Position numbers and translations under genes: made by a program. This document shows, piece after piece, positions 4,244-5,823 of a DNA stretch of 5,823 bases (position 1 is the stretch's first letter; each line of letters opens with the position of its first letter). This DNA comes from a virus (lineage: Duplodnaviria; Heunggongvirae; Uroviricota; Caudoviricetes). The stretch lies in IMG/VR virus record IMGVR_UViG_2713896784_000012, positions 1 to 5,823 of that record. The stretch is one strand, 5' to 3'. The notes under the pieces are model-generated. The model saw nothing but the letters and a program-made list of their open reading frames with translations. It was not told where the DNA came from and made no database searches.

Positions 4244-4906
4244 TCAAATAAAACCAGCTGCCTTCCGGCGTTCGTATTCCTGTTTCAGCCGTTCAATTGG
4301 CGTTGGCCCTTGCGGGTGTTTCGCCCCTTCCAGTTGTCGTCGCACTGGCGGAACACTCATCCCGTTACCAACATGCTTTGCCCATTTCGTCAGTTGCCGT
4401 TCCGCAAGTCGTTTTAACTCACCTTGCGTCATCTGGCGCTCAATCCCTCTGGTACGCATTTCGAGGCAGATGTGGTACAGCACAGGCTGTGGCCACGGGT
4501 ATTTATCACTCCCGTCGTATCGCCAGGATTCATTGCGCCAGCGCCGGTACTCTTCCATCACGGCATCCACCGTAAGACCAAATGGATTTGCCCCACTCTC
4601 CGAAATCAGCGCAACAAACTCAGCCAGGTCCGGGGGCCACGTTTCACCCGCCCGGCAGCGGTCCATGCACTGACGGCACACCAGACGGATTTGCTGTTCA
4701 GTCATCGCACCAATCTGGGCAATCCAGAGCTTCGAAGGTGCGGCCCCGTTCTTCTGAGTCCAGCGGTTCGAATACACCTCCCCCATGAGCTCCCACAGCT
4801 TCCAGGCCGTTTCCGTTGCTGATAAATCCGTTGTCACGTTCCCACTGTTCGCGTGCAGCCCGGATTTCCTGAACTGCCCGTGATGCCGTGCCACCTGATG
4901 CTGCAT
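4244..4906 (-). CDS. Replication protein P-like (lambda P family helicase loader)
   Basis: Recalled lambda P motifs align: FVAWC region to FVALISES; VDMVYEYCRKRG…YPWKS…MR to VDAVMEEYRRWRN…YPWPQP…EMR; LTDAELRRKAADEL to MTQGELKRLAERQL. SD AGGGGGGA precedes ATG 4906. Sits immediately downstream of the initiator homologue, as in lambda O-P. Confidence 0.8.
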   Translation of the reverse strand: MQHQVARHHGQFRKSGLHANSGNVTTDLSATETAWKLWELMGEVYSNRWTQKNGAAPSKLWIAQIGAMTEQQIRLVCRQCMDRCRAGETWPPDLAEFVALISESGANPFGLTVDAVMEEYRRWRNESWRYDGSDKYPWPQPVLYHICLEMRTRGIERQMTQGELKRLAERQLTKWAKHVGNGMSVPPVRRQLEGAKHPQGPTPIERLKQEYERRKAAGFI

Positions 4907-5432
4907 GGCTTCCCCCCTTGCTGACTGGTTTTACCTGTGCCCTGACGTGCTGCACGTGGCGGGCAAATTTCTGCTCCCACTGAACCTGCGTGAAAACCTT
5001 CCCCTCCGCCATCCAGTAATCCCGGAATGCGGCAAGCTCAGCAGGTGTAAATTCCGGCTCAGGCAGAGCCATACCCCACACTGCTGCCCGTTGTCGAAAA
5101 TCCGGCGACGGCTGCCAGACAGTAGTCATCGAAAATTTCCCGATCGGTTCGCTCAGGCCGTCCAGGTATTCAGGTTCGGCTGTCTGCAACGGCGCACCAT
5201 TCGACTCACTGGTCGGAATACTCTCGCGCGCGTTATGTGTGGGGTTTAATTCTGTATCTGTATCTTTATCTGTATCTTTATCTGTCGTGACTTGTCGTGA
5301 CTTGTCGTGACAGATGCGTGACACGTCGTGACTCATCGTGACAATCAGCATTATGTTTCCGCAGCTTTTCCCGCTCCCGCTGCGCTCTCTTGCGCTCTGC
5401 CGGGGATTTTGCCGTTTGCGAAACGTTACCAT
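4698..5432 (-). CDS. Replication initiator, C-terminal part: open frame containing a DnaT-like domain; frame-broken relative to the N-terminal domain ORF and overlapping the P-like gene
   Basis: …IGKFSMTTVWQPSPDFRQRAAVWGMALPEPEFTPAELAAFRDYWMAEGKVFTQVQWEQKFARHVQ… closely matches the recalled C-terminal region of E. coli DnaT ([63 protein letters not shown]). The true start and true end are uncertain. Confidence 0.6.
   Translation of the reverse strand: MVTFRKRQNPRQSARERSGSGKSCGNIMLIVTMSHDVSRICHDKSRQVTTDKDTDKDTDTELNPTHNARESIPTSESNGAPLQTAEPEYLDGLSEPIGKFSMTTVWQPSPDFRQRAAVWGMALPEPEFTPAELAAFRDYWMAEGKVFTQVQWEQKFARHVQHVRAQVKPVSKGGSHAASGGTASRAVQEIRAAREQWERDNGFISNGNGLEAVGAHGGGVFEPLDSEERGRTFEALDCPDWCDD
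5251..5286. repeat. Tandem hexamer tract (TCTKTA x6), AT-rich, next to iteron array A
   Basis: tctgta tctgta tcttta tctgta tcttta tctgtc; encodes the DKDTDKDTD tract in the C-terminal initiator frame. Confidence 0.7.
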
Positions 5433-5751
5433 TGTCCTCTTTCAGCACCTGACGTTTTTCCCATCCGGAAATAAGGTCACCATCCAGAACCCGCCCCTGC
5501 ATTGCATGCAAAATTGAATCAATTACGTCTTCCGTCACATCAAGCGCACTTGCTAAATCTTCCGTCGTGACATCAATGTGACCACGTAGTGACACGCCGT
5601 GACATGTCGTGACATTTCGTGACGCGCTCACCAGAAGATGGATATACACTGCCATCACTGTTGCGATTGGCTGTCCTGATACCCTGGCAATCGTTCGCCA
5701 CTTGGGGTCATTTGGCATGTCATGCCACAATCTGAGCCAGGCATTAGCCAT
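5278..5751 (-). CDS. Replication initiator, N-terminal replisome-organizer (lambda O-like N-terminal) domain ORF
   Basis: MANAWLRLWHDMPNDPKWRTIARVSGQPIATVMAVYIHLL…GWEKRQVLKE… fits the recalled phage replisome-organizer N-terminal pattern. ATG 5751 with SD AGGTGA 3 nt upstream (the track start at 5757 is a GTG). Stop TAA at 5278-5280 lies at the edge of iteron array A. Confidence 0.7.
   Translation of the reverse strand: MANAWLRLWHDMPNDPKWRTIARVSGQPIATVMAVYIHLLVSASRNVTTCHGVSLRGHIDVTTEDLASALDVTEDVIDSILHAMQGRVLDGDLISGWEKRQVLKEDNGNVSQTAKSPAERKRAQREREKLRKHNADCHDESRRVTHLSRQVTTSHDR
5284..5342. repeat. Iteron-like direct repeat array A: six GTCGTGAC-type cores at 10-11 bp spacing (candidate origin iterons)
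   Basis: Cores at 5284, 5294, 5304, 5315 (tgcgtgac), 5325 and 5335 (atcgtgac); GTGAC is invariant and all copies share one orientation. Confidence 0.7.
5564..5623. repeat. Iteron-like direct repeat array B: six GTGAC-core repeats at 10-11 bp spacing
   Basis: Cores at 5564 (gtcgtgac), 5575 (aatgtgac), 5586 (gtagtgac), 5596 (gccgtgac), 5606 (gtcgtgac) and 5616 (ttcgtgac), same orientation as array A. An inverted GTCAC copy lies at 5534-5538. Confidence 0.65.
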
Positions 5752-5775
5752 ACTCACCTCTTCTGATACCGAACT

Positions 5776-5823
5776 TTACCCTCGAACATCCGGAAGAAAT
5801 CCGGCATGAATATTGTTGGTCAA
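5776..5823 (-). CDS. Possible 3' end of an upstream minus-strand gene entering from the right edge (…LTNNIHAGFLPDVRG, stop at 5776-5778)
   Basis: Only 15 codons are visible; the frame is open to the window edge. No identification possible. Confidence 0.2.
   Translation of the reverse strand: MTNNIHAGFLPDVRG

Follow-up and report, generated by a model that had tools for sequence, protein, structure and literature searches.

A candidate two-part replication origin built of short helical-turn repeats inside the initiator gene of a lambdoid prophage

In P1 (incC/incA), F (ori2/incC) and P4 (ori/crr), two clusters of the same initiator-binding repeat are found in or around the initiator gene. These arrays flank the gene or lie kilobases apart, the units of P1 and F are about 19 bp long, and in the P1 and F plasmids the second iteron array serves control. 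The origin oriL of phage SPP1 reportedly lies within gene 38, as repeated boxes beside an AT-rich region, in work attributed to Missich and co-workers in 1997. The SPP1 replisome organiser, G38P, binds oriL and hands over to the phage loader (PMC5615212). In phage lambda, iterons and an AT-rich tract occupy the middle of gene O, each iteron of about 19 bp being an inverted repeat, and Stx-phage variants with extra (six) iterons add residues to the O protein (PMC7466680).

Here we describe a candidate phage origin for which the new elements are a 6-bp core at one-turn spacing, the use of all three coding frames, a two-part arrangement and the position of one array inside the coding region of a folded, presumably DNA-binding domain. 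The searchable literature, which includes few subscription journals, yielded no description of this origin, nor any binding, unwinding or origin data for its initiator family, and an earlier description is possible; a search with the literal repeat GTCGTGAC returned primers only.

The window, i.e., the whole stretch of 5,823 nucleotides that was analysed (IMG/VR record IMGVR_UViG_2713896784_000012), has exactly the sequence of a cryptic lambdoid, Rac-like prophage of E. coli O157:H7. The genes of interest are all on its minus strand, in the order cro/cI-type regulator, ydaT, initiator, lambda-P-like gene and DUF1627 gene. Outside the window, past the cro/cI-type regulator, are dicB and a truncated recE. 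The coding features of the replication locus are as follows.

Positions 4698 to 5751, minus strand: initiator gene, with a replisome-organiser-type N-domain, a linker and a DnaT-like C-domain; 1054 nt here, not a multiple of 3.
Positions 5347 to 5751, minus strand: coding region of the N-terminal winged-helix domain and basic helix (aa 1-135), the presumed iteron-binding domain.
Positions 4935 to 5135, minus strand: DnaT-like domain of the C-terminal half (Pfam PF17948 DnaT, E 1.9e-17; NCBIfam DnaT region, E 5.8e-27).
Positions 4244 to 4705, minus strand: lambda-P-like helicase-loader gene (Pfam Phage_lambda_P, E 1.3e-15; RefSeq 'replication protein P').

The loader gene is downstream of the initiator gene and overlaps its end by 8 nt. 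An ORF listing of the window splits the initiator gene into two overlapping frames (5278-5757 and 4698-5432), the DnaT-like half being out of frame with the N-domain, and RefSeq marks the gene in the identical sequence as a pseudogene, 'frameshifted; internal stop'.

The initiator matches PHROG replication-initiation families with E-values down to 4.5e-119 and PHROG 'replisome organizer' families at 3e-7 to 1e-4, and members of its family are named 'phage replisome organizer' by NCBI. Searched on their own against Pfam, the N-terminal 135 residues gave no significant match; Phage_rep_org_N (PF09681) scored 12.8-13.6 bits (E 0.07-0.12), below its cut-off of 23.3. A search for solved structures related to the initiator by sequence returned none. 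In an AlphaFold2 model of the N-domain (pLDDT of about 90 in the core), three helices come first, followed by a beta-hairpin at aa 47-56; two more helices and a wing lead to a basic helix at aa 117-134, after which aa 137-157 form a disordered tail. The model is a winged helix, for which the nearest folds are the DnaD N-terminal domain (DnaD-NTD) and plasmid RepA, and the helix at the usual DNA-recognition position is acidic. The initiator is thus at best a remote relative of the replisome-organiser and DnaD-NTD-like winged-helix proteins.

The locus resembles SPP1 in its initiator, apparently of the replisome-organiser type, any homology being remote and below the Pfam PF09681 threshold; it differs in repeat sequence and unit size, in its proteobacterial hosts and in its DnaT-like C-terminal domain. 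To judge from the model, the likeness to the RepA_N plasmid initiators (pSK41/pTZ2162 RepA, PDB 4pta) would be one of fold only: no sequence similarity between them and the initiator was detectable, and the present setting is a phage or prophage with a different iteron architecture, not a Gram-positive plasmid.

Within the initiator gene, we located the following repeats and AT-rich sequence.

Positions 5564 to 5623, minus strand: array B, six copies of GTCACG on the coding strand (CGTGAC on the plus strand) at 10-11 bp spacing, encoding aa 43-62.
Positions 5534 to 5538, plus strand: single inverted core, GTCAC on the plus strand and GTGAC on the coding strand, within Asp-Val-Thr.
Positions 5284 to 5342, minus strand: array A, six copies, again 10-11 bp apart, in the part that encodes the disordered linker (aa 137-155 in intact alleles).
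Positions 5251 to 5286, minus strand: AT-rich, purine-skewed tract (GATAAA/GATACA)n, encoding (DK/DT)n; candidate DNA-unwinding element.

On the plus strand, GTGAC starts at 5287, 5297, 5307, 5318, 5328 and 5338 in array A (steps of 10, 10, 11, 10 and 10) and at 5567, 5578, 5589, 5599, 5609 and 5619 in array B (steps of 11, 11, 10, 10 and 10), with the two arrays 229 bp apart. Since the initiator gene is on the minus strand, the core reads GTCACG in the coding direction. Ten of the 12 same-strand GTGAC cores are CGTGAC, a hexamer that occurs 15 times on both strands of the window against 2.96 +/- 1.83 times in 200 dinucleotide-preserving shuffles, none of which reached 15. Tandem Repeats Finder independently picked out 10-bp arrays, one at 5283-5342 and one at 5589-5623, as well as a repeat of 6/12 bp at 5251-5285. 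These results confirm the preliminary description of the sequence, which had listed twelve GTGAC cores in two six-copy arrays at 10-11 bp spacing; the inverted core that it placed between the arrays was likewise found, and its assignment of one array to the N-terminal domain and the other to the domain linker was borne out, array B lying in the winged-helix coding region, where it codes for the beta-hairpin/loop, and array A in the disordered linker. Its claim that all copies face the same side of the helix stands within each array, given the 10-11 bp steps, and could not be upheld between A and B, where the phase changes with the helical repeat that is chosen. If a turn is taken as 10.4 bp, all eight distinct inter-array distances come within +/-3.4 bp of in-phase; with 10.3 or 10.5 bp they do not, and inter-array phasing was discarded as evidence.

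Set beside lambda, the candidate origin likewise lies inside the initiator gene, at the junction of a presumed N-terminal DNA-binding and a presumed C-terminal loader-binding domain. The AT-rich tract comes after the iterons in the direction of transcription, the gene for a P-type loader is downstream, and in both systems additional iterons lengthen the initiator. The repeats are otherwise unlike those of lambda, being asymmetric GTCACG cores in units of 10-11 bp, in two arrays separated by about 230 bp, of which array B falls within the coding region of the folded, presumably DNA-binding domain, with one inverted copy in addition. The preliminary description had noted a difference in layout from lambda. 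The initiator is not a lambda O homologue, Pfam Phage_rep_O (lambda O) giving no match to it even at E <= 10. The absence of this homology and of palindromic iterons of about 19 bp places the locus outside the lambda O/ori family. It also differs from P1, F and P4 in having both arrays inside coding sequence and at helical-turn spacing.

The evidence that carries the origin reading is the conservation of the arrays as DNA. Scanning genomes yielded 47 loci, which belong to Gamma-, Beta- and a few Alphaproteobacteria; about 25 of them (Gamma- and Betaproteobacteria) keep GTCAC arrays at coding-sequence nucleotides ~128-159 (128/138/148/159) and ~386-430 with 10/10/11 spacing; hosts with arrays range from Enterobacterales through Bordetella and Chromobacterium. 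For a codon test, 19 non-redundant homologues were picked by protein motif alone, and codons at core positions were compared with those in the rest of the same genes, as listed here.

Val as GTC: 53/53 at the core, 23% in the rest of the same genes.
Ser as TCA: 33/34 at the core, 17% in the rest of the same genes.
Gly as GGT: 19/19 at the core, 20% in the rest of the same genes.
His as CAC: 34/34 at the core, 59% in the rest of the same genes.

Fisher p-values for these comparisons ranged from 3e-7 to 2e-28. The Thr that follows the core Val is almost always ACG, which yields the core GTCACG, and in array A the residue before His may be C, G or R, its codon always being nGT. At the inverted copy, the Val codon is GTG in 15/15 homologues with the peptide DVT, against 30% of other Val codons (p = 4e-8). 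Across the arrays the core falls in each of the coding frames, giving V-T (GTC ACn), C/G/R-H (nGT CAC) and S-R/L (TCA Cnn), and because all three are used the repeat is not a protein repeat. A check on homologues for nucleotide conservation beyond the needs of the protein, which the preliminary description had proposed, was therefore passed strongly, with the synonymous codons at the cores fixed, and the comparison among homologues shows the repeats to be under selection as DNA, independently of the protein. The linker peptide CHDESRNVT and the loop SRNVTRGHVDVT owe their 'conserved' look to this constraint on the DNA.

Being conserved as DNA and not as protein across many bacteria, the two arrays are very probably the replication origin of the phage. 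More specifically, we consider it likely, from the pattern of sequence conservation, that they make up an intragenic origin in two parts, their repeats being iterons to which the N-domain of the initiator itself binds. Those general features of an iteron origin that can be read from sequence are found here: direct repeats in the same orientation, an adjacent AT-rich tract, and selection as DNA together with a core that co-varies with the initiator, though the match of core to protein is imperfect.

The AT-rich tract beside array A, also proposed earlier as a possible unwinding element, proved to be a general feature. In the window, positions 5240-5279 are the regional minimum at 30% GC and are T-rich on the plus strand. 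In the 33 loci scanned, the lowest-GC 36-mer of the gene directly follows array A in nearly all relatives that have this array, with a GC of 0.11-0.36, where the whole gene has 0.42-0.68. Purines make up 67-92% of this stretch on the coding strand, and the pattern persists in hosts as GC-rich as 60-68%. The number of hexamer units in the tract varies from 3 to 9 among relatives. The tract is also the joint of a mosaic with Rac-type ydaU genes: window positions 4600-5281 match the C-terminal half of Rac-type ydaU at about 88% identity, and positions 5250-5815 are about 83-85% identical to the phages Evi, Tritos and others, the C-terminal halves of which are unrelated. The same N-domain, arrays and AT tract are thus joined to unrelated C-terminal halves, which means that the three travel as a module, as the N-domain and ori of lambdoid O are exchanged as a unit in mosaics. 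The ydaU of Rac-SA53 has a different N-domain, is without GTCAC arrays and shares only the AT tract and the DnaT-like half; for this reason Rac oriJ, which is known experimentally, was set aside as direct support.

This layout bears on whether the arrays serve for control only, through autorepression, a transcriptional roadblock in their own gene or handcuffing as in P1/F incA/incC, with the true origin elsewhere. Two separated arrays, as found here, would suit such a role, and the GC profile has no AT-rich tract adjoining array B. With the lowest-GC, purine-skewed stretch of the gene directly behind array A in nearly all relatives that have this array, the layout is, however, the classical one of iterons plus unwinding element. 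The flanks of the loci showed no further clusters of repeats, and a control role for array B alone would be compatible with the origin reading without replacing it. We regard purely regulatory arrays as unlikely, while array B itself could be a part of the origin, an auxiliary site or an element of copy control.

The origin reading is further informed by subfamilies without GTCAC, in which the layout is retained with a different core in both arrays. When clustered 5-mers were searched for without bias, the two-array pattern emerged in most loci. The core is GTAACG in four loci (L007, L029, L030 and L039), with the inverted copy of L030 reading GTTAC; it is (C)GAACGC in L035, L037 and L045 and, by direct reading, in L036; and it is CTACG/CGTAG in L042 and L050, where the arrays flank an inserted domain and are not in the hairpin. 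Two loci depart from a simple correspondence, in that L029 mixes GTAAC and GTCAC cores and L015 combines an N-domain like that of L030 with GTCAC cores, so the specificity of core to protein is not cleanly one-to-one. Strict covariation was accordingly rejected: it holds for GAACGC against GTCACG and is blurred between GTCACG and GTAACG by these two loci. The clearest subfamily-specific differences in the protein lie outside the iteron-encoded hairpin, in the basic helix just before array A.

A reader of the repeats other than the N-domain, either a host factor or another phage protein, would be in keeping with the acidic 'recognition' helix of the winged helix, binding by the N-domain being a step that we infer. 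Such a reader is nonetheless very unlikely. Among the flanking genes of 20 GTCACG-array loci no family is common to more than six, and the only constant partner of the arrays in these loci is the N-domain that embeds them, which they follow through swaps of the C-terminal domain. The hosts extend from Enterobacterales to Bordetella/Chromobacterium, yet related hosts carry different cores, which makes a universal host factor unlikely, and there was neither DnaA-box enrichment nor a match to an Rfam family. The preliminary proposal of a candidate phage origin inside the initiator gene is hence supported by codon fixation, by the concerted change of cores and by the AT tract, its activity as an origin being predicted from sequence alone.

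The window itself carries a damaged copy of this system. The lesion is defined by two features.

Positions 5283 to 5302, minus strand: two identical 10-bp units, TGTCGTGACT, one of which is the frameshifting extra; either could be the extra.
Positions 5278 to 5280, minus strand: premature TAA stop resulting from the frameshift; the truncated product has 157 aa from the annotated ATG at 5751.

Counted from the GTG at 5757, the listed ORF has 159 aa. In the O157 strains TR01 and 272 the gene is intact, at 1044 nt (protein WP_001262402) and 1056 nt respectively, and array A has five copies; aligned with these alleles, array A of the window shows a 10-bp unit, TGTCGTGACT, duplicated on top of the five. 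Removal of one such unit renders the coding sequence base-for-base identical to the 1044-nt allele of TR01. The third unit, at 5303-5312, differs from TGTCGTGACT at its last base only. The extra iteron copy frameshifted and broke the initiator gene in this genome, and the duplication arose by slippage of one iteron unit. The count of six copies in array A given by the preliminary description is therefore right for the window, the sixth being a frameshifting duplication beyond the five or four copies of intact alleles. We also considered programmed frameshifting at array A and rejected it, since most alleles are intact and in frame and only the 10-bp unit separates the window from one of these. 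Array B has four copies in most relatives, and in the O157 clade an additional 21 bp supplies two extra copies and 7 extra aa; among 80 close IMG/VR relatives, array A has five or four copies and array B six or four, with all genes in frame. With its initiator broken, the candidate origin may be non-functional in the window, and for it to fire, an intact initiator with the same specificity would have to come from elsewhere, in trans.

An allele that is off by exactly one 10-bp unit, and copy numbers that vary among close relatives, might suggest that the repeats are slippage-prone contingency sequences which switch the initiator on and off and are kept for their mutability, not for binding. 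This is more improbable still than a different reader. Among 5,426 complete E. coli genomes just 3 have the frameshift allele, none of the 80 relatives above has it, the positions of the copies and their 10/10/11 spacing are conserved across bacterial classes, and non-identical units of 10 and 11 bp with variable flanks are poor substrates for slippage. Mutability would also leave the conserved core, its concerted change and the adjoining AT tract unexplained. Lastly, the periodicity might follow from a repeated protein motif or from codon bias, or be an mRNA-level signal. This reading has the conserved array-encoded peptides in its favour and is effectively refuted by the fixation of synonymous codons against the genes' own usage, and further by a 10-11 bp period that is not a multiple of 3 with the core in all three frames, amino acid changes under a constant nGT, the disordered nature of the linker encoded by array A, subfamilies with different peptides and the same DNA layout, and the lack of an Rfam match.

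For an origin read by its own initiator, we infer a sequence of N-domain binding, inter-array looping, unwinding and loader recruitment. The N-terminal winged helix, probably with the adjacent basic helix, would bind the 6-bp core GTCACG, and as the core recurs about once per helical turn the bound proteins would line up on one face of the DNA at each array. Initiator oligomers, to which a DnaD-NTD-like fold would be suited, may then distort the DNA across the arrays or between them over the ~230 bp that separates the two, possibly as a loop. The AT-rich (GATAAA)n tract directly downstream of array A would open, and the exchangeable C-terminal domain, DnaT-like in the window, would recruit the P-like loader with host DnaB. 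A further and rather doubtful extension is that the two-part origin is self-encoding, array B both looping to array A as a second site for the initiator and dictating the hairpin of its own reader, with slippage as a recurrent off-switch that silences prophage replication, as in the present genome, and so domesticates prophages. If this were true, the binding site and its reader would be physically coupled and would have to change together.

The initiator family is common. Its N-domain matches 1,790 clusters at 50% identity (E <= 0.001), a region related to array A is present in about 2,160 of the 5,426 complete E. coli genomes, and members are also found in viable phages of E. coli, Aeromonas and Pseudomonas aeruginosa. 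For O157 genomics, a precise inactivating lesion, a 10-bp iteron duplication, has been pinpointed in the replication module of one prophage. For the family as a whole, the comparative signature provides, from sequence only, a candidate origin, a core motif and at least three specificity classes, and these classes are ready swap material for a DnaD-like winged helix that would read a 6-bp site at one-turn spacing.

Length variation was found in the AT-rich hexamer tract and in array B, the putative iterons within the coding region of the N-terminal winged-helix domain (N-domain). Among the 86–99% identical alleles of the homologous loci L053–L132, the tract (window 5251–5286), whose units GATAAA and GATACA encode DK and DT, ranged from 3 to 9 units, and array B alternated between four and six copies through a 21-bp (10 + 11) step, which preserves the reading frame. 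A substantial fraction of the database entries for the initiator protein are labelled 'partial' and come from contigs 0.6–4 kb long whose ends fall within the gene or close to it, probably reflecting short-read assemblies that break at several related prophage copies per genome. Complete genomes with a full-length initiator match typically carry about four matching places each.

The N-domain was also found in other gene contexts, as follows:

Records H63–H68: Pseudomonas aeruginosa phages with an N-domain match (phi1, phita81A, 5399, 5371, Marin)
L042:2501–3691 and L050:2501–3805: N-domain genes bearing an insert, one from a Serratia MAG, the other from a Pantoea genome

In the P. aeruginosa phages the match falls under two separate 'hypothetical protein' features, and the database protein P0091 is 160 aa long, with its C-terminal end just past the array-A/AT-tract region; two readings are possible there, an N-domain that forms a protein by itself or a gene interrupted at the arrays. 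The Serratia and Pantoea genes have the same N-domain as the window, followed by an inserted domain starting YVYYVATTDGDVVRVGISRNPWARCKDLK which, judged by eye, looks like a nuclease (GIY-YIG/T5orf172-like). This insert is bracketed by two arrays with the core CTACG/CGTAG, the second of which is followed by an AT-rich repeat.

Downstream, the lambda-P-like helicase-loader gene can be delimited in two ways:

Window 4244–4906: P-like gene, long mechanical ORF, 220 aa
Window 4244–4705: P-like gene, RefSeq annotation, 153 aa
Window 4698–4705: overlap of the initiator stop region with the annotated P-like start, 8 nt

The long ORF overlaps the 3' end of the initiator gene by about 200 nt, and the Pfam Phage_lambda_P match, covering residues 58–187 of its 220, therefore begins upstream of the RefSeq-annotated start. 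The 8-nt overlap suggests translational coupling of the two genes; the window frameshift would stop initiator translation about 570 nt upstream of this overlap, and P-like expression might therefore also be lowered.

The mosaic junction with the Rac-type gene falls at the shared AT-rich tract:

L052:1599–2669, minus strand: Rac-SA53 ydaU, junction at about window 5250–5281

The two genes share their DnaT-like half as well as the AT-rich (DT)n tract. The N-domain of this YdaU differs from that of the window initiator, and GTCAC arrays are absent from the Rac-SA53 ydaU gene. The sequences GTGTTCAAAC and GTGTTTGAAC sit directly upstream of the ydaU AT tract; they could be initiator sites of ydaU's own, which would make them relevant to oriJ, the known origin of the Rac prophage.
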